DNA of 40,370 bases from Burkholderiales bacterium (GCA_013044025.1 JABEVD010000125.1:1-40370), one strand, 5' to 3'. Shown: positions 5,598-25,391, counted from the first letter of the stretch. Made by a program: numbers and translations. The notes: generated by a model from the letters alone, not told the origin.

Positions 5598-7683
5598 TCT
5601 TGCTCACATCCGGAATCCTGCGCAGCGCCCGCATCACCTGGGCAAGATGCACGCGGTTGCTCACCTGCAGGGTGAAATTGATGTTGGTGTAGCTCCCCTC
5701 GCCTTCCATGCTGATGTTCTCGATGTTGGAACCGGCGGCGGCGATCTCCGCAGCCACCTTGGCGAGCACCCCTCTCTGGTTCCTGACTTCGAGCCGGATG
5801 CTGACGTCGAATTGCCGGGTGATGTCGCTGTCCCATTCCACATCCAGGCATTTCGCCGGATCGACCCGGCTCTTCCTGACGTAAGAACAATCGTGGGTAT
5901 GGATGGTGAGCCCCTGCTCCTTCTTGATGACGCCGAGGATGTCGTCGCCTGGAATCGGATAACAGCATTTTGCGAATTCGACCGCCATTCCTTCCGATCC
6001 GCGGATCACCAGCGGCGCGGGCTTTTCTTCCTGGGAAGCCCCTTCCCCGCTCAGGAGGCGCTTGGCGACCACGATCCCGAGCCTTCTGCCCAAGCCGATG
6101 TCGGTGAGGATGTCCTGCCTGGATTTTGCTCCGGTGTTCCTCAGGAGACGCTCCCATTTTCCATCGTCGATGGATTCGGAAGGGATTTTCAGGGCTGCGA
6201 ATGCCTGATTGAGCAACCTCTCCCCGAGCTGGGCGGACTGCTCGTACTGCATGGTCTTGAGATAATGGCGGATATGCGTCTTGGCCTTGCCGGTGATGAC
6301 ATATTCCAGCCAGTTCGGGTTGGGCTTGGCATAGGGCGCGGTGAGGATTTCCACCGTGTCGCCGTTCCTGAGATGGGTCCGCAACGGCTTCAGTTCGCCG
6401 TTGATCCGCACCGAAAGACAGCGACTGCCGATGTCGGTATGCACGCTGTAGGCGAAATCGACCGGCGTCGCTCCCTTGGGCAGCACCAGGATCTTTCCCT
6501 TCGGGGTGAACACATAGATTTCGTCCGGGAAAAGATCCACCTTCAGATGCTCCAGGAATTCGACCGAATCGGTGCTCTCTCCCAGCGATTCGAGCAGGCT
6601 TTGCAGCCACTGGTGGGTCTTCCTCTGCATCTCGTTCAGGTTCGATTCCGAACTCTTGTACAGCCAGTGCGACGCGACGCCGGATTCGGCGATCTTGTGC
6701 ATTTCCGCAGTCCGGATCTGGATCTCGATCGGGGTGCCGTAGGGGCCGAACAGCGAAGTGTGCAGCGACTGGTAGCCGTTCGATTTGGGCAGCGCGATGT
6801 AATCCTTGAATTTCCCGTGTATCGGCTTGTACAGGCTGTGCAATACGCCGAGCGCATGGTAGCAGGTCGGGATGTCCTTCACCACCACGCGGAATCCGTA
6901 GATGTCCTGCACCTCGGAAAAGCTCAACTGCTTTTCGACCATCTTGCGGTAGATGCTGTAGAGATGCTTCTCCCGCCCGGTGGTCTGCGCATCGATGCCG
7001 GCCTCCTTCAGCTTCTGCACGATGTTTTCCAGGATCTTGTCCACCACCTTGCGCCGGTTTCCCCGCGCCGCCTTGATCGCCTTGTTGAGCACGCGATAGC
7101 GAAGCGGGTAGAGATGCTTGAAGGAGAGGTCTTCGAGCTCCTGGTAGATGCTGTTGAGACCCATGCGGTTGGCGATCTGGGCATAGATCTCCAGCGTTTC
7201 CTTGGCGATGCGCTTTCTCTTGGCAGGATACATCGCGTCCAGCGTGCGCATGTTGTGCAGGCGATCGGCGAGCTTGATCAGGATGACGCGGACATCGCTC
7301 GCCATGGCGAGCAGCATCTTCCTGAAATTCTCCGCCTGCGCATCTTCCTTGGTCTGGAACTCGATCCTGTCGAGCTTGCTGACGCCGTCGACGAGATCGG
7401 CCACAGGCTGGCCGAACAGGTCGATGATCTGCCTTTTCGGCACGGAGGTATCCTCCATGACGTCATGCAGGAGCGCAGCACAAAGGGTCTGCGCGTCTAG
7501 CCGCCATTCCGCGAGAATGCCGGCAACGGCCAGGGGGTGGGAAATATAGGGCTCTCCCGATATCCTGAACTGCCCCCTGTGGGCCGCCTCGCTGAACCGG
7601 TAGGCGGCTTCGAGCTGCGCGGCGTCTTCCGGCCTCAGATAGCCGGCCATTCCGCGAATGGGAAGTTTTTCTTCTCCGGGCAA
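5578..7683 (-). CDS. spoT: Bifunctional (p)ppGpp synthetase/hydrolase
   Basis: HD hydrolase motifs (SGEPYISHP, ALLHDVMED), synthetase (KDYIALPKSNGYQSLHT), TGS (VFTPKG, DFAYSVHT), AKCCYPIPGD and ACT; gmk-rpoZ-spoT synteny. Confidence 0.95.
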   Translation of the reverse strand: MPGEEKLPIRGMAGYLRPEDAAQLEAAYRFSEAAHRGQFRISGEPYISHPLAVAGILAEWRLDAQTLCAALLHDVMEDTSVPKRQIIDLFGQPVADLVDGVSKLDRIEFQTKEDAQAENFRKMLLAMASDVRVILIKLADRLHNMRTLDAMYPAKRKRIAKETLEIYAQIANRMGLNSIYQELEDLSFKHLYPLRYRVLNKAIKAARGNRRKVVDKILENIVQKLKEAGIDAQTTGREKHLYSIYRKMVEKQLSFSEVQDIYGFRVVVKDIPTCYHALGVLHSLYKPIHGKFKDYIALPKSNGYQSLHTSLFGPYGTPIEIQIRTAEMHKIAESGVASHWLYKSSESNLNEMQRKTHQWLQSLLESLGESTDSVEFLEHLKVDLFPDEIYVFTPKGKILVLPKGATPVDFAYSVHTDIGSRCLSVRINGELKPLRTHLRNGDTVEILTAPYAKPNPNWLEYVITGKAKTHIRHYLKTMQYEQSAQLGERLLNQAFAALKIPSESIDDGKWERLLRNTGAKSRQDILTDIGLGRRLGIVVAKRLLSGEGASQEEKPAPLVIRGSEGMAVEFAKCCYPIPGDDILGVIKKEQGLTIHTHDCSYVRKSRVDPAKCLDVEWDSDITRQFDVSIRLEVRNQRGVLAKVAAEIAAAGSNIENISMEGEGSYTNINFTLQVSNRVHLAQVMRALRRIPDVSKIIRVKS

Positions 7684-9314: not shown

Positions 9315-9911
9315 ATGGAAGACAACATTTACGAAGCCCTGTACCGCTATACCCGCGCGCTTTCGGTTGCGCTGGGATTTCGCGACCAGATGACCCAGCT
9401 CCATTCGGAAAGGGTTCGGGCGCTTTCCGTCGAGCTCGGCAAGCGCTGCCGCCTGGACGAACAGGAGATCGAATCGCTGAAAGTGGGCTCTTCCTTTCAC
9501 GATATCGGCAAGATCGGCATTGCGGACCGGATCCTGCTCAAACCCGCCCCTTTCGACGACGACGAATGGAAGATCATGAAACGGCATCCGGAAATCGGAG
9601 AAAGAATCATGCTCTCCACCGGATTCGAAGGGGCCGAACTGGCCGCCCGAGTGATCCGCCACCATCACGAACATTACGACGGCGGCGGATATCCGGACGG
9701 GCTATCCTTCGAACAGATTCCGGTCTGCGCCAGGATCATCTCGATCGCCGACAGCTACGATGCGATGGCGGTGACCCGCGCCTATCACAGCGCGAGAAGC
9801 CACCAACAAATCATGGACATCCTGGAGCGGGAAACCGGCAGGAAGCATGATCCGGATCTGATGAGCATCTTCAGGGGATTCATCGAAAATAGCCAATTCC
9901 GGGCGGCCTGA
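9315..9911 (+). CDS. Stand-alone HD-GYP domain protein (putative c-di-GMP phosphodiesterase)
   Basis: HSERV, HDIGKIG, HHHEHYDGGGYPDGL, ADSYDAM; GGAG RBS before ATG 9315. Confidence 0.9.
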   Translation: MEDNIYEALYRYTRALSVALGFRDQMTQLHSERVRALSVELGKRCRLDEQEIESLKVGSSFHDIGKIGIADRILLKPAPFDDDEWKIMKRHPEIGERIMLSTGFEGAELAARVIRHHHEHYDGGGYPDGLSFEQIPVCARIISIADSYDAMAVTRAYHSARSHQQIMDILERETGRKHDPDLMSIFRGFIENSQFRAA

Positions 9912-9916
9912 AGCGC

Positions 9917-11242
9917 CTAGCTCACCCAGACGGTTTTGACGTTGACGAATTCCTGTACGCCGAACGAGGAGAGTTCACGGCCGAATCCGGAAGCCTTCAC
10001 CCCTCCGAAAGGAAGCCTGGCATCGGATTTCACCATTGCGTTGACGAACAGGCTGCCCGCCTCGATCCGGCTTCCCAGGCGCTGCGCCCGGTCGATGTCG
10101 CGACTCCAGACCGAAGCGCCGAGTCCGTATCTGGTGTCGTTGGCAAGCCTTACCGCATCTTCCTCATCCTCCGCATGCAGCAACACCGCGACCGGGCCGA
10201 AAACCTCCTCGCGAAGCACCCGCGAATCGGCCGCAACCCTGTCCAGGATGGAAGGCCTGTAATGAAATCCGGGACCTGAAACCGGCTCGCATCCGGTGAC
10301 CGGGACTGATCCCCTTTCGATCGCATCCCGCACCTGTTCGTGCAGCAGATCGCGCAGGTCGGCACGAGCCATGGGACCGATGGCGCATCCTTCCTGCATG
10401 GGGTCGCCGATCCTGAGCGATTCGACTCCTTTCCTGAAACGGAAAAGGAATTCCTCCCCGATCCCGGGAACGAGGATGATGCGCTTTGCGGCAATGCACG
10501 ATTGCCCGCAATTCAGGAAACGGGAAGCAATTGCCGCATCCGCAGCCGCCTCGATGTCCGCGTCATGAAGGACGATGAAAGGGTCCGAACCGCCGAGTTC
10601 AAGCACGCATTTTCTGAGATTCCTGCCCGCCATCGCAGCCACTTTTCGCCCTGCGGCTTCGGAACCGGTGAAGGTGACCGCATCGGAAAGGGAAATCGCG
10701 CGCTCCGCCAGATCGGTTTCGATCAGAAAAGTCGAGAAGGGGAATCCGCATTCGCGAAACAGCCTTTCGATTTCCAGGGCGCATTGCGGCACATTGGGCG
10801 CATGCTTCAGGGCGAAGGCATTTCCCGCGCAAAGTGCAGGGACCGCTGCGCGAAAAACCTGCCAGTAGGGGAAGTTCCAGGGCATGATGCCCAGCACCAC
10901 GCCGAGCGGAAGATACTCGACATGGCTGCTCGATGCATCTGTTGCCACTTCCAGAGGCTGGAGAAAATCGCGCTCGGAGTAATACTCGCAAAGGGTGGCG
11001 CATTTTCTCACCTCGGCCCGCGCCTCTCCGATCGGTTTCCCCATCTCGACGGTGATGAGGGATGCATGGCGATCGCATTGCTCGCGCAACCTTTGGGCAA
11101 GCAGCGCAAAATTCCGCCGCCTGTCGTGTGCAGCATCGAGTCCGCGCAGTTGCGCGAATCCGGACAAAAGCCCCGCCTCGTCGAGGCATGGATATTCGGC
11201 GAGGACTTCCCCGGTCGCCGGATTGAGGCTCCTATGCGGCAT
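9917..11242 (-). CDS. NAD(P)-dependent aldehyde dehydrogenase, succinate-semialdehyde dehydrogenase (Sad)-like
   Basis: PWNFP, FTGS, ELGGSDP (catalytic Glu), NCGQSC (catalytic Cys), EEVFGP, PFGGVKASGFGRE. Confidence 0.9.
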   Translation of the reverse strand: MPHRSLNPATGEVLAEYPCLDEAGLLSGFAQLRGLDAAHDRRRNFALLAQRLREQCDRHASLITVEMGKPIGEARAEVRKCATLCEYYSERDFLQPLEVATDASSSHVEYLPLGVVLGIMPWNFPYWQVFRAAVPALCAGNAFALKHAPNVPQCALEIERLFRECGFPFSTFLIETDLAERAISLSDAVTFTGSEAAGRKVAAMAGRNLRKCVLELGGSDPFIVLHDADIEAAADAAIASRFLNCGQSCIAAKRIILVPGIGEEFLFRFRKGVESLRIGDPMQEGCAIGPMARADLRDLLHEQVRDAIERGSVPVTGCEPVSGPGFHYRPSILDRVAADSRVLREEVFGPVAVLLHAEDEEDAVRLANDTRYGLGASVWSRDIDRAQRLGSRIEAGSLFVNAMVKSDARLPFGGVKASGFGRELSSFGVQEFVNVKTVWVS

Positions 11243-12554
11243 CTTGTGTCGGCAAATGCAGCACGATCAGGAAATTGGAATGTTTTCCGTCCGGATTCGG
11301 AACCCGCGCAAAACGGCTTTCCACCCGGACTTTTGCGCCGCCCCCGGTCGAAAGCGTCACATCGACGGGATGCACATTCCGGATCAGGGCTTCGGCGAGC
11401 AGATCCTCGAGCCCCATTTTTCCCTCGAATTTGAGCAGTTGCGTTGCATCGACTCCCGCCGCCTCTTCTGCATCGACGCCGAGGAGTTTTTCAGCGGCAG
11501 GATTGAGTCCGGTCACGATTCCTTGCGGATCGACATCGAGCACCGCATCGCCCGTCATCTCCTGCAGGAACTTCGTGCGCATGTTCTCGATTTTTGCGAC
11601 ATGACGCTCCGCCTCGTAGGATTCCAGCGTCCTGCAAAGCTGGGCATTGGCCGATTCGAGAACAGAAATCCTTCTTTCCAGAAGTTCCGTCATCCTCGAC
11701 ACCCGCTGCTCCAGCCGGTAACGATGCTCCGCCAGCTCCTCTTCCATCGCCTTCTTTTCGGTGATGTCGAGCATCACCCCCTGCAGGTACATCATGTTGC
11801 CCGTTTCGTCCCGGACCACGCTCGCCTCGTCGTGGAACCAGCGGGTCTCTCCGGCGCGGGTGAGCATGCGGTAATCGCAGCGGAAGGATTCACCGGTATT
11901 GCGACTGTGCAGATAGGATTGCATCACCGCATCCCGGTCTTCTGCATGGATCTGCTGAAAGCGCAAATCCCGCCTTTCCAGCCATTCCTCGACCACGAAT
12001 CCGAGCCGCTCGATCTGCGGACTCACGAAGATCAGTCTGCCTTCCTCCTCGAAACTCAGGATGTAGGTGATGGAGGGAAGATGCTCCACCAGCCTGCGGT
12101 ATCTTTCTTCCGCAGAACGCTTTTCTTCCAGCAGCCTCTGTCCGCTCAGCACGCGCTGGATGACCGCAGGCAGCAGCTCCAGATACCGCCCTTCGCTGTC
12201 CTTGATGAGGTAGTCTCGTGCGCCCCGCTTCATCGCCTCGACTGCGATGGCGATGTTGTCCGATCCGGTGAGCTTCAGGACCGGCACGTGGATATTGCCC
12301 ATCTCGTCTGCAATCTCGGCCAGAAAATCGAGCCCGGTCATGTCCGGAAGATGATAGTCGAGCAGGATGCAATCGAACTTGTGTTCGCGGGCGAGCTTCA
12401 ATCCTTCCTGGCCGGTATCCGCCTCGTAGAGTTCGAAATCGTAATCAGGATGTTTCTGCAGCGCCCTGCGACAGGCCATGCGATCCACGGCATCGTCCTC
12501 GACCAGGAGTCCGACGATGTGGCGCGAAAGCTTCCGGTCTTCTGCTTCGTTCAT
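11232..12554 (-). CDS. Response regulator REC-PAS-coiled coil-PAS with no output domain
   Basis: LLVEDD / LLDYHLPD / LTG / YLIK receiver; PAS-PAC (FVSPQIE...IHAEDR...RWFHD...DITEKK); second PAS (VDPQGIVTGLNPAAEKLLG). Confidence 0.85.
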   Translation of the reverse strand: MNEAEDRKLSRHIVGLLVEDDAVDRMACRRALQKHPDYDFELYEADTGQEGLKLAREHKFDCILLDYHLPDMTGLDFLAEIADEMGNIHVPVLKLTGSDNIAIAVEAMKRGARDYLIKDSEGRYLELLPAVIQRVLSGQRLLEEKRSAEERYRRLVEHLPSITYILSFEEEGRLIFVSPQIERLGFVVEEWLERRDLRFQQIHAEDRDAVMQSYLHSRNTGESFRCDYRMLTRAGETRWFHDEASVVRDETGNMMYLQGVMLDITEKKAMEEELAEHRYRLEQRVSRMTELLERRISVLESANAQLCRTLESYEAERHVAKIENMRTKFLQEMTGDAVLDVDPQGIVTGLNPAAEKLLGVDAEEAAGVDATQLLKFEGKMGLEDLLAEALIRNVHPVDVTLSTGGGAKVRVESRFARVPNPDGKHSNFLIVLHLPTQDAA

Positions 12555-12961
12555 GACGGCATCTCGCTGATCGTCCAGTAGGTGTTGATCGAACGCATCA
12601 CTTCGACAAACTGCCTGTAATCGACCGGTTTGGCCATATAGCCTGCAACCCCCAGTTCGAAGCTGTCCACCTTGTCCTTCTGTTCCGCAGAGGTGGTGAG
12701 CACCACGACCGGGATGGACCGGTATGCAGCATGCCCCTTCACCTCCTTCAGAAACTCGATCCCGCCCATCCTCGGCATGTTGAGGTCGAGCAGGATGATG
12801 CAGGGGCGATCCTGCAAAGCCAGGGATTGAAGCGCATCTTCCCCGTTTTCCATGTGCACCAGGGGATTGGTCACATGCAGTTCCTTCAGCGCGCGCTTCA
12901 CCGTCATCGCATCCACCTGGTCATCCTCGACCAGCAGGATTGGCTTGTTGTTAAGCCTCAT
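12551..12961 (-). CDS. Single-domain response regulator, Rcp1-like
   Basis: ILLVEDD, LLDLNMP, VVVLTTS, YMAKP and C-terminal YW typical of phytochrome-associated Rcp1-type regulators. Confidence 0.9.
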   Translation of the reverse strand: MRLNNKPILLVEDDQVDAMTVKRALKELHVTNPLVHMENGEDALQSLALQDRPCIILLDLNMPRMGGIEFLKEVKGHAAYRSIPVVVLTTSAEQKDKVDSFELGVAGYMAKPVDYRQFVEVMRSINTYWTISEMPS

Positions 12962-14012
12962 TGACTTCCACTCCTTCCCTGTCGATGCTGCCGACCAACG
13001 GCAGCGTGAAATAAAAAGTGCTGCCTGTTCCGACAGCCGATTCAAGCCAGACTTTCCCGCCGTGCATTTCCACGATCTTCCTGACGAGGGCGAGTCCCAC
13101 CCCCGTGCTCTCGACCCTGTCGCGCGGCGCAAGCGTCTGGAAAAGATGAAAAATGCGCTCGAAATGGCGCTCCTCGATTCCCGGCCCGTTGTCCCTGACG
13201 TAAAATTTCCAGTCATCTTTTTCTGCGATGCAGCCGATCCGGACTTCCCCTTGCGGCTTGTCGATATACTTCATCGCATTCGAGATCAGGTTCTGGAAAA
13301 CCTGCTGGATGCGGGTTTTCTCGACGCGCAATTCCGGAAGACTGGTTTCCACTTCCACGCTGATCGCTTCATGAGGTCCCAGGGAGTCGATGATTTCGTG
13401 CAACAGCAGATTCAGATCGACCCGAACGAGTTCCTCATGCACCCTGCCCACCCTGGAATACTGGAGGATGCCGTCGATGAGGGCGTCCATCCTCCTGGTT
13501 CTGCCGACCAGAAGACGCAGATGCTCGCGGCCCTCTTCGTCGAACTTGTCCGCGTAATCCTCTGCGATCCACTGGGTGAGCGAACCGATGGCGCGCAGCG
13601 GCGCCTTCAGATCGTGTGATACGACATAGGCGAAATTCTTCAGCTCTTCGTTGGCGCCTTTCAGATCATGCATCAGCATTTCCTGTTGGCGGTTCTGTTC
13701 ACTGAGCTCTGCAGTCCGTCTCGACACTTCCTCTTCCAGGATGTCACGCTGATTCTTCAGCAGGTCACGGGTCTTCTCGAGTTCTGCGATATTGTCCTGG
13801 AGGGGGCGAAACAACTGGAAGTAGAGGATGGGGGAAACCAGCAGGGTGAGAAACAGGCCGTCGAGCAGATTCTCGGTCATCAGGGGAAGATTGTGCATCT
13901 CCTCGAAGAGGATCATCAGGATGATTTCCGTGGAAAAGATCGATGCGGCGACGATGACGAGCGCGCGGAGAACGCCTTTTTTCGGTGCGGATTCCATGCC
14001 GTTGCCAATCAT
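12951..14012 (-). CDS. Membrane histidine kinase (Cph1-like transmitter, two TM helices)
   Basis: FAYVVSHDLKAPLR H-box, QNLISNAMKY N-box, DNGPGI, IFHLFQTL, GVGLA; two N-terminal hydrophobic helices; GAGG/AAGG upstream of ATG 14012. Confidence 0.92.
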   Translation of the reverse strand: MIGNGMESAPKKGVLRALVIVAASIFSTEIILMILFEEMHNLPLMTENLLDGLFLTLLVSPILYFQLFRPLQDNIAELEKTRDLLKNQRDILEEEVSRRTAELSEQNRQQEMLMHDLKGANEELKNFAYVVSHDLKAPLRAIGSLTQWIAEDYADKFDEEGREHLRLLVGRTRRMDALIDGILQYSRVGRVHEELVRVDLNLLLHEIIDSLGPHEAISVEVETSLPELRVEKTRIQQVFQNLISNAMKYIDKPQGEVRIGCIAEKDDWKFYVRDNGPGIEERHFERIFHLFQTLAPRDRVESTGVGLALVRKIVEMHGGKVWLESAVGTGSTFYFTLPLVGSIDREGVEVNEA

Positions 14013-14114
14013 CGATTCACCTTTCCTCAAAACTGCCTGAACCAAGCCGGAGGCAGATTCTGCACACCGAATCTGGACCAAGTCAAGAAATGCAGCGCCG
14101 CAAGACATCGGTTG

Positions 14115-15960: not shown

Positions 15961-16638
15961 CTAGGGCAGGAGGCGTTTTTCCCGGATTTCGAGGTTTGCG
16001 TCGAAGCAATACAGAATCGGCACGCCGGAAGGGATCTCCACATTTTCGATCCGTTCCGGGGAAATTCCTTCGAGATGCATGACGAGGCTTCTCAGGGTGT
16101 TGCCGTGGCTCACCACGAGGAGACTTTTTCCTGCGGCGATGCGCGGAGCGAGAACTTCATTCCAGTAGGGAAGCAGTCTCTTCTGGCAATCGGCAAGGCT
16201 TTCGCTCGCCGGAAGCAGCGCGGGGTCGAGATCGGCATAGAGCGGATCGAAACGGGGGTGGCGCGGGTCGTCAAGATCGAGCGGAGGAGGCGCTTCGAAA
16301 TAACCGCGCCACCAGAGACGCGCGCGTTGTTCGCCCCAGAGGGCGAAAATTTCCTCCTTGTTCATTCCCTGCAGTTTGCCGTAATGCCGCTCGTTGAGGC
16401 GCCACGAAGAGTACCTCGGCAGTTCCTCCTTCAGGATGCAATCGACCGTCTGGTGCGCGCGAAGCAGAACCGAATCGTGCACTTCGTCGAAATGGAGCCC
16501 CGCATCATCGAGCCTTTTTCCGGCCTGCCTCGCCTGGGAAAGTCCTTGCTCGTCGAGTGCAATGTCGGTCCAGCCGGTGAATCGGCCGCAAAGATTCCAT
16601 TCGCTGCTGCCGTGCCGGAGGAGGACCAGGCGGATCAC
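15961..16638 (-). CDS. gpmA: 2,3-bisphosphoglycerate-dependent phosphoglycerate mutase
   Basis: LVLLRHG, RFTGWTD, LNERHYGKLQG, ESLAD, SHGNTLR; GTG overlaps the upstream TGA (GTGA). Confidence 0.85.
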   Translation of the reverse strand: MIRLVLLRHGSSEWNLCGRFTGWTDIALDEQGLSQARQAGKRLDDAGLHFDEVHDSVLLRAHQTVDCILKEELPRYSSWRLNERHYGKLQGMNKEEIFALWGEQRARLWWRGYFEAPPPLDLDDPRHPRFDPLYADLDPALLPASESLADCQKRLLPYWNEVLAPRIAAGKSLLVVSHGNTLRSLVMHLEGISPERIENVEIPSGVPILYCFDANLEIREKRLLP

Positions 16639-17267
16639 TCCGCAGACTCTTTCAGCACCTGCGTAAGATGATGGTGATCGTCCCATTTCTCCAGATGCAG
16701 GCCGTGATCGTCGATGTGGAACCAGTTGAGCGCGCAGTTGGGGATGGAAAAATCGCGAGGGGTGTGAAGCGGCCTTCCCGTGGCGCGCCGATACAGGATA
16801 TCGAGCACTCCGGCATGCGTGACCGCCGCGATGGTCTGTCCGGCATGATGACGCCTCATGGCATCGACCGCCCGCCCGACCCTGCCTGCGAAATCGTGCA
16901 GGCTCTCGCCGGTCTCGAAATCGTAATCTGCATCGCGGCTTCGGTAATGCAGGCTGGCTCGAGGATGCAGAACCTCACCTTGCGCTGCGGTGATTCCCTG
17001 GAAAATGCCGTAATGCCGCTCCCGGAGTTCGCTGCAACGCACGACTTCGAGTTCTCTTCTTGCCGCGAGCATGGATGCGGTGTCGAAGGCCCGGACGAGA
17101 TCGGAGCTGTAGATGGCGGAAAATTGGTGGTGGGCGGCATTGAAGGCCATCGCCACAGCCTGCCTCTTTCCGGTTTCGTTGAGCGCGATGTCTGTCTGTC
17201 CCTGGATGCGCTTTTCCACATTCCAGTCGGTTTCGCCATGTCGGATGAAGCAGATCCTGGTGGGCAT
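16635..17267 (-). CDS. Histidine phosphatase family protein (GpmB/CobC-like)
   Basis: RHGETDWN, YSSDLVRA, LRERHYG, GES, THAG. Confidence 0.9.
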   Translation of the reverse strand: MPTRICFIRHGETDWNVEKRIQGQTDIALNETGKRQAVAMAFNAAHHQFSAIYSSDLVRAFDTASMLAARRELEVVRCSELRERHYGIFQGITAAQGEVLHPRASLHYRSRDADYDFETGESLHDFAGRVGRAVDAMRRHHAGQTIAAVTHAGVLDILYRRATGRPLHTPRDFSIPNCALNWFHIDDHGLHLEKWDDHHHLTQVLKESAE

Positions 17268-17497
17268 CTAGCAGTCTGTCGGGATTGAAACAGCCGGGAA
17301 AGCAGGTATTGGGGGCATTTTGGTCGGTTTCGGATCCATCCTCGAAGGCGAACGAAGCCATGAACGCATCCACCATCCAGGGAATGCGCCGGGACAATCA
17401 ACCTTGCACAGGCTCGCCGGGAGGCATGCCATGCCGCCCGGTGTCAGGACCAGCCTGACAGGATCGATTGTCGCGAAACGGGAATTCGCTTCCCGGA

Positions 17498-17860
17498 TCA
17501 GAGAATGTCCGCGATGCTCTTCGCTGCGCGCTTGGTGTCGAGGAATATGAGACCCAGTTTCGCGTCCTTCCTCGCGATGACCGTGAGAACCGCGTCTTTT
17601 CCCGCATGGCTCATCAGGATGTAGCCTTCCTCACCCTTCACCATTACCTGTTCCAGCGTCCCCCTGGAAAGCTCCCTCGCCGTGCGCTCCCCGAGGGAAA
17701 GCATGGCTGCCGCCATCGCGCCGACACGATCTTCATCCACTTCCTTGGGCAACAGGGCCACGATCGTCAGGCCGTCCGAGGAAATGATGGCTGAAGCCTC
17801 GATATCGGCCGATGCGCCGCTGAGGTCGCTGAGAATAGTTCTTAGTATTTGTTCCCGCAT
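17498..17860 (-). CDS. Roadblock/LC7 domain protein (MglB-like)
   Basis: 120 aa; IEASAIISSDGL, DRVGAMAAAMLSLG, QVMVKGEEGYILM, KLGLIFLD; AGGAG RBS. Confidence 0.92.
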   Translation of the reverse strand: MREQILRTILSDLSGASADIEASAIISSDGLTIVALLPKEVDEDRVGAMAAAMLSLGERTARELSRGTLEQVMVKGEEGYILMSHAGKDAVLTVIARKDAKLGLIFLDTKRAAKSIADIL

Positions 17861-17885
17861 TGTTGTCTCCTGACTTGACTACTGC

Positions 17886-17891
17886 ATTATA
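17886..17891 (-). promoter_or_regulatory. Perfect -10 hexamer upstream of the roadblock gene (internal promoter candidate)
   Basis: TATAAT 25 nt upstream of the ATG in a 90-bp gap, preceded by an A-tract; no good -35. Confidence 0.4.
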
Positions 17892-17950
17892 ACCCGCTTC
17901 CCGGATTTTTTTCATGAACAAATGAAGATGCGTCCACTCTTTGCGAATTT

Positions 17951-18586
17951 TCAGCCATACCGATAGCTGAGCGCCTGCACCAGGGTCACGAATTCGTCCC
18001 CCTGCAGCCTGGGAGCGCCATCGATGATCAGCACAAAGGACTGATTTCCCATGTACATCGGAAAAAAACCCAGCTCGGACTGACCCGCCGGGTCCATGAT
18101 CGCCCAGGCGTTGCTGTTGATGTTCAGATTGTTCTTGAGAAGCAAGGCATGGCGGTTGCTCATGGTGAGGATGTCGCCAGCCAGCGCCGCAATCTCGACT
18201 GCCGCCTCGTGGTAAAAACCGGAAGTCACCAGATAGAATCCGCTGTCATCGGCGAGAATGGAGCGTCCCGTACTGGAAAGTGAGGCCAGCAGATTGGGCA
18301 GGATCGACTCCAGGCTTCCCTGTGGCATCCGCTTCGGCGTTTCCGTCCCGCGCACGAAATCCAGTCTCTGCAGCCGGTACAACAACTGCACCGCGTCGTC
18401 AGGAGAACCGAGTTCGGACCAGGCCATGAGCTGTTCTTCGGAAGGAGGACGGTTCGTCCCTTCCGTCAAAAGCCTGATCAGCATTTTTCTGGCGCTGTCG
18501 AGATGGGCGCTGGCAACCGCGTAATACGCACCTGCCGGCGTGACCTCTGCAAACAGCGAGCGGTTTAACGTCAGTATATCCGGCAT
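17951..18586 (-). CDS. Hypothetical protein, probable winged-helix plus roadblock/profilin-like fusion
   Basis: 211 aa, 1-nt gap after the GTPase; C-half SILADDSGFYLV...EIAALAGD resembles roadblock; N-half LLYRLQRLDFV resembles a wHTH. Confidence 0.7.
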   Translation of the reverse strand: MPDILTLNRSLFAEVTPAGAYYAVASAHLDSARKMLIRLLTEGTNRPPSEEQLMAWSELGSPDDAVQLLYRLQRLDFVRGTETPKRMPQGSLESILPNLLASLSSTGRSILADDSGFYLVTSGFYHEAAVEIAALAGDILTMSNRHALLLKNNLNINSNAWAIMDPAGQSELGFFPMYMGNQSFVLIIDGAPRLQGDEFVTLVQALSYRYG

Positions 18587-18587
18587 T

Positions 18588-19130
18588 TCAACCTTCCAGC
18601 CCCGGGTCGATCGAGAACAACATCGCCATGACGAGATTCTTCACATCCTCGCGACTTCTGCCATCGATCTCGAAAATCGGCGGGCGCATGCCCATTTTCT
18701 CCAGCATCCTGGCATAGGTTCCCGCGGTCGGAGTCGGCTTGAGATCGGTCTTGGTGACCCCGATCACGACCGGTGCCCCTTTCAGCATGTCCTTGAATGC
18801 ATCCAGAAAGAACTCCATGTCCTTTTCCGGATTCTGCCTGCTGTTGTCGAGCAGCAGGATCAGGCCGATCGCGCCGTTGCTCAGGATTTCCCACATGAAA
18901 TCGAAGCGCTCCTGGCCGGGCGTTCCATAAAGATGGACCTTCGATCCGTCGTCGAGATGCAGCAGGCCATAATCCATGGCCACCGTGGTATACCCCTTCC
19001 TGTTCAGCGTCATGTCGGAAGCATTCGCATCCGTGGTGACGGGCGGAATATCGCTGATCGCACCGATGGCCGTGGTTTTCCCCGCACCCACGGGACCGGT
19101 GAAAATGATCTTGTTGTCCAGCTTGCGCAT
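18588..19130 (-). CDS. Small ATP/GTP-binding protein, MglA/CvnD-like GTPase
   Basis: G1 GPVGAGKTT, G2 TTVAMDYG, G3 GTPGQERF, G4 TKTD. Confidence 0.92.
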   Translation of the reverse strand: MRKLDNKIIFTGPVGAGKTTAIGAISDIPPVTTDANASDMTLNRKGYTTVAMDYGLLHLDDGSKVHLYGTPGQERFDFMWEILSNGAIGLILLLDNSRQNPEKDMEFFLDAFKDMLKGAPVVIGVTKTDLKPTPTAGTYARMLEKMGMRPPIFEIDGRSREDVKNLVMAMLFSIDPGLEG

Positions 19131-19148
19131 CCAGTCTCTCCCCTTTTC

Positions 19149-20261
19149 TTACAACCCGACAATCCTGCGCAGCAACCTGGAAAGCATTCCTCCCTTGGCT
19201 TCGTCCTTCACGAGCACCGGCTCGACGGGCGGCGTCTCGGCCGCTTCTCGTCTGGATTCGATGACATCGAGCAAGCCGATGCTGTAGGCTGCAGAAAGAA
19301 AATCAAAAAGATTCGCAGGCGGTACATTCAGCATGCGCACCGCGACAGGAAGACTGGAAGGCGACCTCACCAGGAAAGCGGCCATCCGGAGCGCATTCGG
19401 GATGGGCGCCATGCGCGTCAGATTCGGCCAGTATTTCAGCTTGACCGGCGCATGCACCGGGATTCCGTCCGGCAGCCTGCCGCGGCTCGTCCAGATCGCC
19501 ACCTGCCAGAGCAGCCCGACGAAATTGGAGACCACGATGTTGCGGTTGTCCGGCTTGTCTTCCTTCTGCAGCGCACGGGTGGTGATGATCACCCCCTCGT
19601 TTTCGCATGCGTTTTTCAACTGAGTCAGATCCTGAAGCACCATCACCCTTTCCTGCTCCGGAAACACGATGAGGCTGTTCTGGTTTGCGATCATCACCAT
19701 GCTCGGGCGCTTCGCCTGCAGGATTTCCTGCAAGGTGCCGAGCAGTCCGCGAGTCGGATCGAAACGACCGACCTGCTCCGGCATCTTCTGCATGGCAGGC
19801 TGCGAGGAAGGCGCGTTCACCGAAGAAGGAACCGGCTGGGATGCGAGTTCCGGCTGTGCATTCTGCACGACTTGCAGCGGCGGGGACTGGGGCGGGGACT
19901 GGGGCGGATTCTGCCGGCCCGGCGTGGTGCGCTCCGATAACACCTGGCGCAACAGGGGGAACAGCGTTTCGATCCTGACCGGCTTCACCAGCACCGGCAC
20001 CGGCGCATCCGGCAGGGAAATCATGCTGACGATGAGGGTCGGCAGGTCCGGATTTTCACTGCCATGGTTTTCCCAAAGCAGGTTGCCGTCCACGCAGTCC
20101 ATATCTACGATGGCAAGATCAGGCTTCATGCCGATCGCATCCTCGGCCAGTTCGTACCTTTGCATGGTGTGCATCTTGAATGCCATGCGAAACACAGCCT
20201 GCTTGCGACTGTCCATGCCCACCGTCTTTACACAAATCACCTTGTTTTGCGTCGCGCTCAT
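19149..20261 (-). CDS. Atypical receiver-domain protein with Pro/Gln-rich linker and C-terminal helical domain
   Basis: PDLAIVDMD, LIVS, LVKP receiver core lacking the beta1 acidic pair; NPPQSPPQSPP linker; amphipathic C-tail MLSRLLRRIVGL. Confidence 0.75.
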   Translation of the reverse strand: MSATQNKVICVKTVGMDSRKQAVFRMAFKMHTMQRYELAEDAIGMKPDLAIVDMDCVDGNLLWENHGSENPDLPTLIVSMISLPDAPVPVLVKPVRIETLFPLLRQVLSERTTPGRQNPPQSPPQSPPLQVVQNAQPELASQPVPSSVNAPSSQPAMQKMPEQVGRFDPTRGLLGTLQEILQAKRPSMVMIANQNSLIVFPEQERVMVLQDLTQLKNACENEGVIITTRALQKEDKPDNRNIVVSNFVGLLWQVAIWTSRGRLPDGIPVHAPVKLKYWPNLTRMAPIPNALRMAAFLVRSPSSLPVAVRMLNVPPANLFDFLSAAYSIGLLDVIESRREAAETPPVEPVLVKDEAKGGMLSRLLRRIVGL

Positions 20262-20271
20262 CTTGCGTTCC

Positions 20272-21789
20272 TCATGCTGCGATCTGTTGTGTTCTTAGCT
20301 GCAGGCGCTTGTACAAACTGTTCATCATGGAAATCACTTCGGCCGGCGGCCTTTGCGCACGCTTCTTGATTTCCGAAGCCATGCTGGTGAAGCGCGCAAG
20401 CGCGTCCATGCGATCGTACAAATCGAGCAGCGGCCTGTAGAGCTGCACTTTCTGCGGATCGGCAAGAATTTCACGTTCGAGCAGTTCGAGCGCTTCGTCG
20501 ATCTGCCCATATTCGATATAGGAATCCACTTCGGCCAGGACCGCGTCTCCATCGTGCCCGGTTTCGTAGGTCTCGTTGGATACCGATGCGCTTACGAGAT
20601 CCAGCCCTTTCGAAGTCACCATTTCGACCGGATAATATCCGAAATTCCTGCCGATTGCCTCGAGATGGCGCCGCTCCTTCGCCTGAGCAAGCGCTTCCAG
20701 AACCGGATGAGTCCCCATCGAGAACCCCACGCCGAGCAGCCTTTCCTTCAGGTCGCTGCCATAATTGTCCAGCACGTTGAAAAGCTGCCAGAGCGTCTTC
20801 GCATATTCGTCGACTTCCTTCCTGAAGTAATACAGCTTCAGGATTTCGGTGAAATTGACCAGCGCTTTGGGCTGCTCGACAATCGCGCGCTTCAGGACCG
20901 GAATCGCGCATTCGTAATTCTGGAAGGAAAGATACAGTTTCGCAGCCAGCGCTGCAGGAACCAGGGTATCGATTACATCGCGCTCCTGGCTGGAAAGCGG
21001 ATCCAGCGGTGCAGTCCCTTCCACCACCTGCTTGCCGAGGCGGGGCGCCGCACGCCTTTCGGCCGGGGGAGCGGCGGGCTTTTCCGCGGATTCCCGGATT
21101 TCTTCGCGCGCAGGAACGGGCCTGACCTCTTCCGGAGCGGGCGCGGCCGGCTTTGTCGGTTCCACCGGCGGGGCAGGCTTGGGCGCTTCCGGAACGCCGC
21201 CCAGGATGGAATTGATTTTTTCGAAACTGATTCCCAGGCAGGCTTCTGCGAACACCCGAAGCTGCAGGTTGCCGCTGTCTTCCTTGAGTCCTGCGACGAA
21301 CGCCCGCTTGAGGAAATCGGCTCGCTCGCCCGCCTCCGACAATTTTTCCAGAACCAGCGCGTAATTGTCGATCTGGCTGAGCTGGAAATAAACCTGGAGC
21401 AGCTTGCGCAAGGCATTGAGGTCGGAATGGCCGGCGCTGCTGTCTACATACCAGCGCAACGTCTCCGCGGCCCGCTCGTAGTATCCGTATTCGATATAGA
21501 TGTCCACGCCCTCGAGGGGATCGACCTCGCTGACCTCGATGACTTCGCTGGTGCGAACGCCGGCTGTCTGCGCCTCGACTTCTGGCGCAGCACTTTCCTG
21601 CGCGCTCCATTGTCCGGCCTCGTTCTTCCTCGACTTGATCTTCTGTACCGCAAGCTTCTTCGCAGCCATCGACCTGTTTCGATGGACCAGGAAAAACAGC
21701 GCCGCGATCAGCACGATCACGCCTGCTGCTGCGCCAAGCGTGACCGGGTCGGCCAGGATTTCCTCAACTTGTTCGATCAGATCCTCCAT
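20272..21789 (-). CDS. Single-pass membrane protein with FimV-like TPR repeats
   Basis: N-terminal TM (LGAAAGVIVLIAALFFLV) then basic residues; DPLEGVDIYIEYGYYERA and LAEVDSYIEYGQIDEA resemble the FimV DPLAEADIYIAYG motif; Pro/Ala/Glu linker. Confidence 0.75.
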   Translation of the reverse strand: MEDLIEQVEEILADPVTLGAAAGVIVLIAALFFLVHRNRSMAAKKLAVQKIKSRKNEAGQWSAQESAAPEVEAQTAGVRTSEVIEVSEVDPLEGVDIYIEYGYYERAAETLRWYVDSSAGHSDLNALRKLLQVYFQLSQIDNYALVLEKLSEAGERADFLKRAFVAGLKEDSGNLQLRVFAEACLGISFEKINSILGGVPEAPKPAPPVEPTKPAAPAPEEVRPVPAREEIRESAEKPAAPPAERRAAPRLGKQVVEGTAPLDPLSSQERDVIDTLVPAALAAKLYLSFQNYECAIPVLKRAIVEQPKALVNFTEILKLYYFRKEVDEYAKTLWQLFNVLDNYGSDLKERLLGVGFSMGTHPVLEALAQAKERRHLEAIGRNFGYYPVEMVTSKGLDLVSASVSNETYETGHDGDAVLAEVDSYIEYGQIDEALELLEREILADPQKVQLYRPLLDLYDRMDALARFTSMASEIKKRAQRPPAEVISMMNSLYKRLQLRTQQIAA

Positions 21790-21807
21790 TGACCGGCGTA
21801 TTCCTGC

Positions 21808-22578
21808 TTACGGAACCTGATAGTCCGCCTCGGTCACGAGATCCGTCCCGCACTCCAGAGTCTCGATCCAGTCGATGAAGCGGTTCACCATTTCCTTTCC
21901 CTTGAAATAGCCGCCATGCTGGGGAACGATGCATTCGATATCGAGTTTCCTGCCCATGGCCGCCCACAGTCTGCAAACCTTGTTGTTCGACATGTAGCGC
22001 TGATGAAAGCCCACCGAATGAGCGGTCTCGAGATGCCTGTCGAAATCCGCGATCGGCTGACCTGCCTGGGCTCCATCCATCAGGGAAGCGCCCATGTCTC
22101 CAGAAAACAGGATCTTGCTGACCGGATCATAGACCTGGAAATTGCCCACCGCATGCAGATAATGCGCCGGAACGATCTTGAGTTCGGTTTCCCCGAGCTT
22201 CAGGTTCATTCCGCCTGGCTGGACCGGAATGACGCGTCCTTCCGTCAGTCCCTTGACACAGAAATGCGGCAGGAATCGCTCCCATTCCCTGGCGATCACG
22301 ATGTTCGCATCGGTGATCAGCAGCCAGCCGTTTGCGGACGCGATGATGTCCGGATCCTCATGGGAAGCAAAAATGTATCGGGTATGCGAAGGCAGGACAT
22401 AATTGGCCATCTCCGCGAGCAGGTGCTTGTAGGTCAGATTGCCTCCCGGATCGAGAAGCATGGACTCTCCGTTGTCGACGATGAGAAACTGGTTGGACTG
22501 GATACCCTCTCCCTGAACCAGTTCGGTAAAGGCGATACATTTGTGGCTTCCATCGTCATAAAGTACTACTGCAGGCAT
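21808..22578 (-). CDS. MBL-fold di-iron protein, ODP (oxygen-binding di-iron protein)/FprA-N-like
   Basis: GGAGG RBS before ATG 22578; IQSNQFLI, LLDPGG, SHEDPD, AHYLH, LFSGD, FHQRYM, IVPQHG; no flavodoxin domain. Confidence 0.85.
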   Translation of the reverse strand: MPAVVLYDDGSHKCIAFTELVQGEGIQSNQFLIVDNGESMLLDPGGNLTYKHLLAEMANYVLPSHTRYIFASHEDPDIIASANGWLLITDANIVIAREWERFLPHFCVKGLTEGRVIPVQPGGMNLKLGETELKIVPAHYLHAVGNFQVYDPVSKILFSGDMGASLMDGAQAGQPIADFDRHLETAHSVGFHQRYMSNNKVCRLWAAMGRKLDIECIVPQHGGYFKGKEMVNRFIDWIETLECGTDLVTEADYQVP

Positions 22579-22644
22579 TCCCCCTCCCAGCCGGCGCGCA
22601 TTGCTTGCCACGCACCATTTTCATTTTGGACACCAACATCCGGA

Positions 22645-23019
22645 TCACATCGTATGTGTCAGGCGAGCCGTTTTGGCTGCGCCACCGAGATGCTCCTCAA
22701 TTTTTCTCCGCAACATCTTGCTGTTGTCGCTTTCGTCGAAATGAACTCCGACGCCCTGCAAACGCCCGCCGTGACAACCCTTGGGCGTGATCCAAGTCAC
22801 CTCGCCGTTGGCCAGGATCTTCTCCGGCGCATCCATCAGGCTGAGCAATATGAACACTTCGTCCCTCAACTTGTAGGGGTGAACCGTAGGAATGAAGATC
22901 CCCCCGTTCTTCAGGAAAGGAATGTAGGCGGCTGCAAGGGCCGCCTTGTCCTTGACCGAAAGCGCGAGCATCTTCGGAATATCGGGCGCGGCCGCCTTCG
23001 TCGCAGTTACGTTTGTCAT
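22645..23019 (-). CDS. pilZ: Type IV pilus assembly protein PilZ
   Basis: LSVKDKAALAAAYIPFLKNGGIFIPT, YKLRDEVFILL, WITPKG, GVGVHF and C-terminal THTM match the Pseudomonas/Xanthomonas pilus PilZ type. Confidence 0.9.
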   Translation of the reverse strand: MTNVTATKAAAPDIPKMLALSVKDKAALAAAYIPFLKNGGIFIPTVHPYKLRDEVFILLSLMDAPEKILANGEVTWITPKGCHGGRLQGVGVHFDESDNSKMLRRKIEEHLGGAAKTARLTHTM

Positions 23020-23144
23020 GTCTCCGTGACGCCCTCATTCCGGACCGTATTCATGGCCTCGCCGGATTGACCGAATTTACGGTGCCGGACGATAAGTCGC
23101 AGCCAGTCCGGGGCAACCGCCTTGTCCAAGATCACTTCCTTCAC
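23016..23144 (-). CDS. Putative small protein (42-45 aa) translationally coupled to pilZ
   Basis: GAGGAAGG 8 nt before GTG 23144 (alternative GTG 23153); MKEVILDKAVAPDWLRLIVRHRKFGQSGEAMNTVRNEGVTET; TGA overlaps the pilZ ATG (ATGA). Confidence 0.4.
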   Translation of the reverse strand: MKEVILDKAVAPDWLRLIVRHRKFGQSGEAMNTVRNEGVTET

Positions 23145-23231
23145 TTCATCCACCTTCCTCACAGAATATCAAGCGTATGAAGCCTGAAACAGAATCCAAC
23201 GCAGAAACCATACCGGCAGGAATGCTTAGGC

Positions 23232-23261
23232 AGTATAGCGCCTGTCAAAGAATTTAATCAA
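23232..23261 (-). promoter_or_regulatory. Putative sigma70 promoter of the pilZ-roadblock operon
   Basis: Minus strand TTGATT-N18-TATACT in an AT-rich intergenic region. Confidence 0.55.
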
Positions 23262-23307
23262 GTCCGGCCAATACCATGCGCATTATATATGCAATATGGA
23301 TGCAACT

Positions 23308-24024
23308 TCAGAAGCTTTCGTTGCTTCCGAGATAGCGCCACTTCCCGGGCGGCAGCTCTCCCAACCTCACCTTTCCGATCCTGACCCGCTTCAATCCGGT
23401 CACCCTGAGACCGACGAGCTCGCACATTCTCCGGATCTGGCGTTTTTTCCCTTCCTTCAGGATGAATTTCAACTGGTCTTCGTTCTGCCTGCTGACCCTT
23501 GCCGGTTTCAGCGCCACGCCATCCAGGGAAAGGCCGTGATTGAGGAGCGCGAGCCCCCGATCGTCCAGCCTGCCTTGCACCCGAACCAGGTATTCCTTTT
23601 CGATTTCGGAAGACTCCCCGATCAGCAGTTTCGCGATCGTGCCATCCTGGGTCAGCACCAGGAGACCGGTGGAATCGATATCCAGCCTGCCCGCCGGGGC
23701 AAGCCCTTTCAGATGGTCCGGAGAAAAGGTTTTTCCCTCCCCATGCATCGATTCACGGTTGACGAGCGAAACCGCGGCCTTGTATCCCTTTTCCGGCTGA
23801 CCGGAAACGTAACCCACGGGCTTGTGGAGCAAGATGGTGACGGGCGCCACGCGACGAGCCTCCCTGGAGAGGGAAATCTTCTGGGCGGGGTCGATCCTGG
23901 TGCCGAGTTCGGTCACTTTCTGCCCGTCCACATACACCCATCCCATCGAGATGAAATGATCCGCCTCCCGGCGCGATGCGATGCCCCGCTCGGACATCAG
24001 CTTGGAAATCCTGACCTTTTCCAT
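23308..24024 (-). CDS. rRNA pseudouridine synthase, RsuA/RluF family
   Basis: S4 domain (SRREAD), [19 protein letters not shown] catalytic motif, [10 protein letters not shown]. Confidence 0.93.
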
Positions 24025-25391
24025 CAATTGGGCTCGAACCAGGCAAGTTTCTCGCGCAGGCTCACCACGCCGCCCACGATGATGAGGGTGGGGGGCGTGA
24101 GTTTCGCATCCATGGCGATCCGGTAGAGATTCGCGAGCGTACCGGTCAGGACTTTCTGGTTCCGGGTGGTTCCCTGCTGCACCACGGCCGCGGGAGTCGA
24201 TTCTGGCAATCCGTGCTCGATGAGCTTCGAACAGAGCACTTCGAGTCCGGTGAGCCCCATGTATACAACCACGGTCTGACGCGGTCTTGCCAGCATCTCC
24301 CAGTCCAGATCCATGCTGCCGTCCTTGAGGTGCCCGGTAACGAACACGCAGGACTGGGCATGATCGCGATGGGTGAGCGGGATGCCGGCATAACTCGCCA
24401 CCCCGGCTGCGGCGGTGATGCCGGGCACGACCTGGAAAGTGACGCCTCGCGCGGAAAGGGTCTCGATTTCCTCCCCTCCCCTGCCGAAAATGAAGGGATC
24501 CCCGCCCTTGAGCCTCAACACGCGCTTTCCTTCCTTCGCGAGCCTCACCAGGAATTCGTTGATTTCCTCCTGGGGCATGGCGTGATCGCTCTTTTTCTTG
24601 CCGACATAGATGCGGGTCGCATCGCGCCTCGTCATCTCCAGGATGGGCTTGGAGACCAGATTGTCATAGAGCACCACATCGGCCTTGTGCATGAGGCGAA
24701 GCGCGCGAAAGGTGAGGAGATCCGGGTCTCCCGGCCCTGCGCCGACCAGATACACTTCTCCCTGGTGAATTGCGCCTTCCTGCAACCCCTCTTCCAGCAT
24801 CGCCTCGGCGCGCTTCTCGTCTCCGAGCAGCACCTTTTCTGCGATCTTCCCTTCGAAAACGTCCTCCCAGAAAATCCTTCTTTCGGAAGGACTCGAAATT
24901 TTCTGCTTCACCTTTTCGCGAAAACGCGCGGCGAAGGAAGCGAGCCTGCCATATCCTTCCGGAATCAGCGACTCGAAGCGGGCGCGCAACAGGCGGGCCA
25001 GCACCGGAGAAGCCCCTCCAGTGGAAAAAGCCACCATGAGCGGAGAACGGTCCAGGATGGAAGGCATGACGAAGGAGCAAAGATCCGGGTTGTCGACCAC
25101 GTTCACCGGAATGTTTCTTTCCCGGGCGAGCCTGGAAACCTCCACATTGACTTCGCGGTCGTCGGTTGCCGCGATCGCAAGGGTCATTCCATCGAGATGC
25201 TGGGCGGAGAATCTTTCGGCAACATGCTCCACTTCGAGCCTGTCGAAACCTTCCGAGAGCGTGGGCGAGACCACCTTCACTTTCGCCCCGGACTGGGCCA
25301 GGATGGAAGCTTTCCTGAGGGCGACCTCCCCGCCGCCCACCACCAGGCAGGTCTTTTGCTTCAGATCGAGAAAAATCGGGAAATAATCCAT
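24024..25391 (-). CDS. cysG: Siroheme synthase
   Basis: [57 protein letters not shown]; TGATG overlaps at both ends. Confidence 0.96.

Follow-up and report, generated by a model that had tools for sequence, protein, structure and literature searches.

Gene content of the locus

The window analysed here is a stretch of 40,370 nucleotides (nt) from a Burkholderiales bacterium (GCA_013044025.1, JABEVD010000125.1:1-40370), and all positions are counted from its first letter. [quoted passage not shown] The gene set, the folds of its products, a conserved five-gene core and a recurrent ODP-Roadblock neighbourhood are established by the comparisons below, and from them we propose how an oxygen or iron signal might reach the GTPase.

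Coordinates and sequence both gave intergenic gaps of 66, 18, 10, 18, 1 and 90 nt, with the ODP start at the ATG at 22578; a GTG at 22611 is an alternative start. An initial annotation of this DNA had described the seven co-oriented genes with these very gaps, and had recognised PilZ, ODP, an atypical receiver, an MglA-like GTPase and two Roadblocks among them. The Pfam, PDB and AlphaFold2 (AF2)/Foldseek results agreed with these identifications.

Table 1. Features of the cluster and its upstream region (E, expectation value; pLDDT, predicted local distance difference test)
Feature	Position	Strand	Basis
Promoter-like site TTGATT-N18-TATACT	23232..23261	-	9/12 consensus matches; kept in near-identical genome G344
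Leader of about 210 nt, without recognised RNA element	23020..23231	-	Rfam and fold tests
PilZ, pilus-assembly (PilB/FimX adaptor, XAC1133/PA2960) type	22645..23019	-	PF07238, E 1.3e-7
ODP, metallo-beta-lactamase fold	21808..22578	-	PF19583, E 7.8e-68
Membrane-anchored TPR protein, 505 residues	20272..21789	-	Weak TPR_14 and TPR_19 matches
REC-like adaptor, 370 residues	19149..20261	-	AF2 model (pLDDT 82.4) and Foldseek
MglA-family small GTPase, Group 3 type	18588..19130	-	PDB matches and motifs
Roadblock-fold protein, 211 residues (MglB-1 type), with N-terminal helical extension of about 85 residues	17951..18586	-	AF2 and Foldseek
Second promoter-like site ATGAAA-N18-TATAAT, in the 90-nt gap before the last gene	17886..17915	-	10/12 matches, consensus only
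Roadblock/LC7 protein, 120 residues (MglB-2 type)	17498..17860	-	PF03259, E 3e-17

The five-gene core is a Group 3 MglA system

By profile search, the REC-like protein has relatives in 453 species genomes; the best 80 loci were fetched for neighbourhood counts. In all 80 the TPR, REC-like, GTPase, 211-residue and Roadblock genes stood in the same order and orientation. Because the TPR gene lay upstream of the REC-like gene in every locus, it was counted as a fifth core member. The position upstream of the TPR gene was taken by an rRNA/tRNA methyltransferase-type gene in Neisseria, by ODP and then PntB in Vogesella, and by ODP and then ProQ in Crenobacter.

The GTPase matched the Pfam family ATP_bind_1 (E 9.4e-17), with Roc and Ras below cut-off, and its closest PDB matches were MglA structures at weak scores (3t12, E 8.5e-5). 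Its motifs are a P-loop in G1, Thr-Thr in G2, GTPGQ in G3, TKTD in G4 and DGR in G5. Among 20 aligned sequences, the window's included, G12-K18-T19, T48-T49, G69-T70-P71-G72, D156 and R158 were invariant, and Q73 was present in 19, with Arg in the remaining one (locus L025). Two marks of Group 1 are absent from the protein: the Thr-Thr pair leaves G2 with no intrinsic Arg finger, and G3 reads GTPGQ, not TVPGQ. The C-terminal I-D-P-G-L (window 18588-18630) was invariant in 20 relatives, an uncommon degree of conservation for the tail of a small GTPase, and may be a motif for binding a partner.

According to the text of Wuichet & Sogaard-Andersen (Genome Biol Evol 2015, PMC4316618), MglA Groups 2-5 carry Thr where Group 1 has its arginine finger and read GTPGQ in G3, an unusual D-A-R motif in G5 is shared by Groups 2 and 3, and Group 3 systems occur in beta- and gammaproteobacteria including Neisseria. 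The same text describes as Group 3 neighbours one or two MglB homologs and a protein that runs from a receiver-like N-terminus over a variable linker to a winged-helix-like part at the C-terminus, for which the Phyre2 call was a receiver plus a winged helix-turn-helix. Because the GTPGQ, TT and DxR motifs, the receiver-linker-winged-helix neighbour and the two coupled MglB homologs found here match this description, we assigned the GTPase to Group 3, an assignment that rests on motifs, neighbours and taxonomic range. The G4 lysine is often missing from the published systems, whereas all 20 of our aligned sequences have it, within a [TS]KxD motif.

Judged by these features, the REC-like/GTPase/two-Roadblock set is the published Group 3 MglA system and is not new, and the earlier view that the combination was undescribed in a betaproteobacterium has to be given up for the core. 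The mgl locus of Snodgrassella has also been placed in Group 3. There, G78R in an orphan mglB changed the flares that colonies form at their edges on soft agar and conferred an advantage in colonisation, which the authors read as altered pilus-dependent motility, so that the system is loosely tied to pilus motility in the text of that paper (PMC11112851, 2024). Among the papers listed by our literature searches, none was a functional study of a Group 3 system in Neisseria or Xanthomonas.

The two Roadblock proteins differed in how readily they were recognised. The profile of the 120-residue protein, whose identity was 57-88% across 17 relatives, matched the solved Roadblocks 7f8m (E 3e-28), 9jue (2.4e-23) and CvnB5 (1.8e-10). 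The window copy of the 211-residue protein matched no Pfam family, and 17 of its 19 relatives matched Robl_LC7 (PF03259) weakly. Its AF2 model (pLDDT 84.8) led Foldseek to Roadblock, MglB and Ragulator structures (3kye, E 1.7e-4; 1j3w, 6.1e-4), and its profile matched CvnB5 (3leq, E 4.3e-4). In the L025 locus, from Paludibacterium denitrificans, the gene of this protein holds 5 stops (9773-10396) and the ODP gene is split over two frames (5730-6523), which may reflect long-read assembly error or decay of the cluster.

The REC-like protein of the window matched no Pfam or NCBIfam family. When 20 relatives were scanned at E<=1, Response_reg appeared in one (0.18), and the sole match below 0.01 was a chance-level AAL_decarboxy. 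The AF2 model consists of a receiver fold (8-109), a disordered Pro-rich linker (112-149), an alpha/beta domain, a winged-helix-like unit of three helices and a strand (290-333) and a final helix, and Foldseek returned receiver domains (3nhm, E 5.8e-5) and, with the whole model, receivers only. The alignment showed D53, D55, K93-P94, W252, G261, R262, W278-P279-N280 and R283 to be invariant. In the terminal helix L360 is invariant as well, and R362, L363 and G369 are nearly so. D53 sits at the phospho-acceptor place. The arginine missing from Group 2-5 GTPases and from their MglB proteins might be provided by R262 or R283. The middle domain was also considered as another Roadblock and rejected (profile-profile E 0.51 and 0.61); unnamed stand-alone relatives, 180-228 residues long, occur in the Atlas. 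DUF742, the CvnC domain, had no match in the REC-like or 211-residue families.

The TPR protein has an N-terminal hydrophobic segment preceded by about 16 residues, as read from the alignment, and gave only generic TPR matches in NCBIfam. It had been called FimV-like, a label that does not hold: no LysM was matched in Pfam, there is no room for a periplasmic domain, and the FimV C-terminal motif TIGR03504 was unmatched by the window protein and matched by 1 of 21 relatives (E 0.0065).

One account of such a core is that the REC-like protein is a DNA-binding response regulator acting on transcription through its winged helix. The Phyre2 call for Group 3 neighbours in the text of PMC4316618 and our AF2 model, which likewise has three helices and a strand at 290-333, speak for this account, as does the receiver, in which the phospho-acceptor position still holds Asp and Lys-Pro is retained. 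However, the helix at the recognition position (315-327) showed no conserved basic residue in the alignment of 20 relatives, and no histidine kinase was conserved in the 80 loci examined. The conserved C-terminal helix and the membrane-anchored, invariant neighbour would also point to the membrane and not to DNA. We thus consider transcription control an improbable role of the protein.

A subfamily of ODP is tied to Roadblock proteins

ODP matched PF19583 at 228.6 bits (cut-off 27.2) and aligned over its full length with PDB 6qrq/6qwo (E 8.8e-63, residues 5-249) and 6qnm/6r9n (7e-56). Residues H73, D75, D77, H139, H142, D161 and H221 were invariant in 12 aligned relatives, and the putative metal ligands are among these His/Asp columns.

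An ODP gene stood directly upstream of the core, co-oriented with it, in 23 of the 73 loci that had at least 1.2 kb of upstream sequence (tblastn and phmmer; 21 by a stricter distance rule). The ODP-bearing loci come from Chromobacteriaceae, some Neisseriaceae, Gallionellaceae and Hydrogenophilus, and the short gap is kept in them.

Of 401 genomes sampled evenly across the order, 27 had the GTPase (E<=1e-20), 28 had Roadblock and 86 had ODP. Ten ODP copies, in 8 genomes, were at least 70% identical to that of the window; 8 of them lay within 4 kb of the GTPase and the other 2 directly beside a Roadblock gene. Conversely, in the 7 sampled genomes with an orthologous GTPase (at least 65% identity) but without an adjacent ODP, ODP was not matched anywhere.

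Of the two copies beside a Roadblock gene, one is the second ODP of this same genome and the other the second ODP of its close relative G344. In the host genome (contig C85:11495-12609; L019:1435-2549), ODP2 is 72% identical to the first copy and is followed about 20 nt later by a gene for an orphan Roadblock of 108 residues, which matches PF03259 (E 8.4e-12) and shares 45% identity with the one in the cluster. The unit resembles an ODP-Roadblock pair that has been duplicated. Its neighbours are a PAS-domain gene, divergent and upstream, and a transporter-like ORF downstream. No orphan third MglB was found with the orphan Roadblock (Robl3) as query in five other cluster-carrying genomes. A third ODP-Roadblock context was seen in G019, which belongs to another family (L113:5468-7976): a 534-residue AAA_22/STAND NTPase with a C-terminal Roadblock is followed by ODP, an OmpA-family gene and an unnamed 231-residue gene, and the genome has no GTPase match.

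Other ODP proteins keep other company. In the same-genus genome G144 (L100:5900-11398), which has no GTPase, an ODP paralog (about 44% identity by tblastn) is followed by GGDEF-EAL and PAS-GGDEF-EAL genes, and it sits downstream of the same pseudouridine synthase gene, in the place that the GTPase cluster takes in the window. Among 24 longer ODP-containing proteins, the additional domain was hemerythrin in 19, HATPase_c in 1, PAS in 1 and REC-GGDEF in 1, with no other domain in 2. By these comparisons, ODP has the character of a transferable sensor module with signalling partners of several kinds, and one subfamily of ODP is tied to Roadblocks.

PilZ and a possible link to type IV pili

PilZ matched PDB 4f48_B (E 2.7e-29) and 3cnr (2.6e-28), its residues 17-124 aligning with 10-117 and both sequences ending in THTM. 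The solved Xanthomonas pilus-assembly PilZ (XAC1133), with which this alignment is made, was crystallised alone and in complexes. To our knowledge, PilZ proteins of the XAC1133 type do not bind cyclic di-GMP (c-di-GMP). A housekeeping copy lies on contig C119 of the host, between a DNA polymerase III delta' gene (holB-type), itself preceded by thymidylate kinase, and TatD. With that copy in the tmk-holB-pilZ-tatD context, the PilZ of the window is an extra, second one. Same-genus genomes without the cluster have one copy (G144, G097) or two (G043), and the cluster carrier G041 has two, one of them in the cluster.

PilZ was adjacent to the cluster in only 1 of the 80 loci, L021 from a Gallionellaceae metagenome-assembled genome. 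The conservation beside the GTPase and Roadblock genes on which the initial annotation relied was thus found for ODP in part of the loci and failed for PilZ. The L021 operon, PilZ-ODP-TPR-REC-GTPase-Roadblock, is preceded by a c-di-GMP-I riboswitch (5027-5113; 50.9 bits, cut-off 35), which was found neither in 8 other ODP-containing loci scanned nor in the window. A further trace of PilZ was found in G043 (L114:8781-9470), where a 229-residue ORF fuses the second PilZ copy of that genome (73% identical to the one in the window by tblastn) in frame to residues 35-185 of the TPR protein. The ORF sits among housekeeping genes. Since only one such fusion was found, it counts as a hint and not as a Rosetta stone. 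Taken together, the sequence comparisons indicate that the tie of PilZ to the module is real in this lineage but narrow.

The host assembly (2.56 Mb, 242 contigs, 88% complete) holds the pilus machinery on which such a link would act: PilB and four PilT-family genes scored over cut-off, as expected from the earlier proposal that the module serves type IV pili. It also has 15 MCP and 4 CheA-type matches, none of them on the contig of the window.

That proposal went further: the module would set polarity, with the GTPase driven by the di-iron sensor at a polar landmark of FimV-like type so as to steer pili up O2 or Fe gradients without chemoreceptors. The parts it calls for are all encoded (ODP, GTPase and two Roadblocks, membrane TPR protein, PilB-adaptor PilZ), the host has PilB and PilT genes, and O2/iron gradients are plausible where this DNA was found, in metagenomes of mine drainage, mine tailings and a hot spring. 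The details fit it poorly, however. The GTPase is of Group 3 and not a Group 1 polarity MglA with Arg finger and TVPGQ, the TPR protein lacks the FimV features tested, and of the 80 loci, all of which retain the core, just one has PilZ beside it. The 15 MCP and 4 CheA-type matches would serve conventional taxis. Among the carriers are Neisseria species, which are cocci; if these have no poles, polar steering cannot be the general role of the core. We hold this model to be unlikely, and treat aerotaxis, cell polarity, pilus steering and taxis 'without MCP or CheA' as candidate readings only. In short, what was observed in the initial annotation was confirmed, and its interpretation was partly supported.

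Transcription signals, flanks and distribution

A single promoter, TTGATT-N18-TATACT, had been placed ahead of all seven genes. The site is present, but the region holds 5 promoter-like sites against 2.3 +/- 1.6 in shuffled sequence, so that this consensus match alone is not beyond chance; and because a better match (17915..17886) precedes the last gene, one promoter for the whole cluster is not established. A scan of the region found no terminator-like sites in the gaps between the seven genes.

A riboswitch in the leader was considered and rejected: Rfam gave no match at E<=0.1 over 16500-24500 and only chance-level snoRNA matches at E<=10 over 22980-23320, where the c-di-GMP-I aptamer RF01051 was unmatched as well. 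The leader folds no better than shuffled sequence (z +0.78). A 48-codon leader ORF (23016-23162, minus strand), whose stop overlaps the pilZ start (ATGA), was not treated as a gene because it is not conserved in the near-identical genome G344.

The stretch is represented in 7 DNA runs, which belong to 4 studies and come from mine drainage, mine tailings and a hot spring. In one RNA library (X8), contigs cover PilZ and ODP in part, the TPR gene in its 5' part, the REC-like gene and the last gene at its 3' end; DNA carry-over is possible for this cover, and the uncovered stretches are uninformative. Under a 31-letter rule none of the contigs listed bridges a gene junction (on the PilZ side, record 17 reaches 30 letters), and co-transcription therefore cannot be claimed from these DNA and RNA libraries.

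The cluster is flanked upstream by pseudouridine synthase and siroheme synthase genes, and downstream by two histidine-phosphatase-family genes and a cyclopropane-fatty-acid-synthase-type gene. Further downstream, 3.4-6 kb from the cluster, the window encodes a histidine kinase (HisKA and HATPase_c) and a REC-PAS-PAS protein (11232-14108, minus strand), both also present in G344. The GTPase was found in only 1 of 8 other same-genus genomes, and the module is thus patchy within the genus. In a synteny check for an insertion of the seven genes, the two flanking genes of the window were on different contigs in the same-genus genomes.

A proposed sensor-to-switch pathway

We propose that the locus encodes a Group 3 MglA switch with a Roadblock pair, held at the membrane by the TPR and REC-like proteins, with ODP as input and the extra PilZ leading to PilB as output. 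The GTPase is probably cycled by the 120- and 211-residue Roadblocks, and the switch is probably held or read out at the inner membrane by the TPR protein, through its single membrane-spanning segment, together with the REC-like adaptor. ODP would sense O2 or Fe(II) and feed the switch, most likely by binding an MglB-like Roadblock. The additional PilB-adaptor PilZ would offer one possible route for the output, to the extension motor of type IV pili. In Myxococcus, TPR proteins are known as effectors of MglA when pili are formed (PMC7519303). We give the pathway as a whole about even chances. Every step past the statement that the GTPase has Roadblock partners is inferred, namely the O2/iron sensing by ODP, its action via the Roadblock, the anchor or effector role of the TPR protein and the pilus output. 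Among these steps, the link from ODP to the switch has comparative support.

The contact between ODP and the Roadblock was modelled with ODP and two copies of the 120-residue protein. The median score was 0.50 (runs 0.46, 0.54 and 0.50), against 0.01 for the best control; contacts agreed by at least 84% between runs, and partner pLDDT was at least 85. We know of no solved ODP-Roadblock complex. The calibration comprised 80 solved complexes and 110 mismatched pairs; 58 of the former and 2 of the latter reached the mark, and only 7 of those 80, along with both mismatches, did so at 0.60 or below. The prediction is weak support, which raises the odds of an ODP-Roadblock contact a little and no more.

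Several points weigh against the proposed pathway. The score of 0.50 lies in a band where predictions are wrong more often than right, save for pairings already likely on other grounds, and the job was unlike the calibration in using our own alignments and three chains. ODP was absent from 50 of the 73 loci, including all fetched Acidithiobacillus, Neisseria and Kingella, so that it is an accessory and not a defining part. None of the 24 longer ODP-containing proteins has a Roadblock domain. The single locus with an adjacent PilZ has been mentioned above; the PilZ-TPR fusion is a single protein among 5.8 billion, and it may be a scar of a deleted cluster as well as a functional fusion. Those who defined Group 3 proposed transcriptional control instead, in the text of PMC4316618. 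As far as our literature searches reach, what is new is the TPR gene as an invariant member, the association of ODP with Roadblock, which is both recurrent and exclusive, and the lineage-specific extra PilZ; we found no mention of TPR, ODP or PilZ neighbours in the text of that paper, and its supplement or Muok et al. 2019 may list ODP or TPR neighbours.

A last alternative is that the genes are mere neighbours without a tie to the switch: ODP would work in c-di-GMP signalling or chemotaxis, and PilZ would serve the pilus machinery in the usual way. The wide occurrence of ODP, mostly in genomes without the GTPase, its place beside GGDEF-EAL genes in G144, the confinement of PilZ adjacency to two lineages and the lack of a junction-spanning contig among those listed from the RNA library are all consistent with it. 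Chance neighbourhood would nevertheless have to account for the like position, orientation and short gap of ODP in 23 loci of several families, for a high-identity subfamily that occurs only beside the GTPase cluster or a Roadblock gene, for the duplicated pair in this genome and for the third context in G019. The complex prediction, weakly supportive with controls near zero, adds to this side. We therefore give coincidence little credence.

Comparison with known switches

The proposed pathway shares features with several known systems. Like MglA/MglB/RomR/RomX/SgmX of Myxococcus xanthus, it combines a GTPase and a Roadblock with a receiver-Pro-rich-linker protein, a TPR partner and a possible pilus output. 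The Myxococcus MglA, however, belongs to Group 1, with Arg finger and TVPGQ. Its genes are scattered and receive Frz-type input, whereas here one operon-like cluster with a membrane-anchored TPR protein has a candidate di-iron sensor as input and none of the Frz type. RomR is defined by a receiver, a Pro-rich linker and a Glu-rich C-terminus that binds RomX/MglA; the REC-like protein, with its receiver fold and disordered Pro-rich linker, may resemble it in architecture, and has as its C-terminus a folded alpha/beta and winged-helix part instead.

The actinobacterial conservons (CvnA-D, Group 2) resemble the cluster in GTPGQ and DxR, in the CvnB5 (3leq) Roadblock match and in being an operon switch with a sensor at its head. 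That sensor sits in the membrane and resembles a histidine kinase, and DUF742 is the third protein; the candidates for these places are here ODP, the TPR anchor and the REC-like adaptor. With the ODP proteins of Treponema denticola and Thermotoga maritima, which sense O2 and Fe(II) for a cytoplasmic chemoreceptor, the window protein shares full-length similarity, the His/Asp columns and the arrangement of a stand-alone sensor beside a signalling partner. There the sensor is paired with an MCP homolog that acts on CheA, according to the text of PMC7666581, and here its partner would be a GTPase switch with Roadblocks. The PilZ-PilB-FimX adaptor of Xanthomonas is matched by a PilZ that, in this genome, stands outside the tmk-holB-pilZ-tatD setting.

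Implications for Group 3 systems

A broader idea, which we put forward tentatively and regard as more doubtful than the pathway itself, is that ODP is a general O2/iron input for Roadblock-regulated NTPase switches. It would bind MglB-like Roadblocks and set the state of Ras-like GTPases and of other P-loop NTPases, such as that of G019; in the present cluster, the switch would gate the pilus extension motor via PilZ on a TPR scaffold. If true, this would be the first demonstration in bacteria of a small-molecule sensor that acts directly on a small-GTPase regulator.

Group 3 systems are carried by many beta- and gammaproteobacteria, including Neisseria, Kingella, Chromobacterium and Acidithiobacillus. 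The recurrent, exclusive pairing of one ODP subfamily with Roadblocks offers them a concrete and testable input, O2 or Fe(II), while the invariant membrane TPR gene is a candidate anchor or effector and the extra PilZ suggests one output. If ODP does act on the Roadblock, ODP signalling would reach beyond chemoreceptors, and a bacterial Ras-like switch would be wired to a chemical cue.

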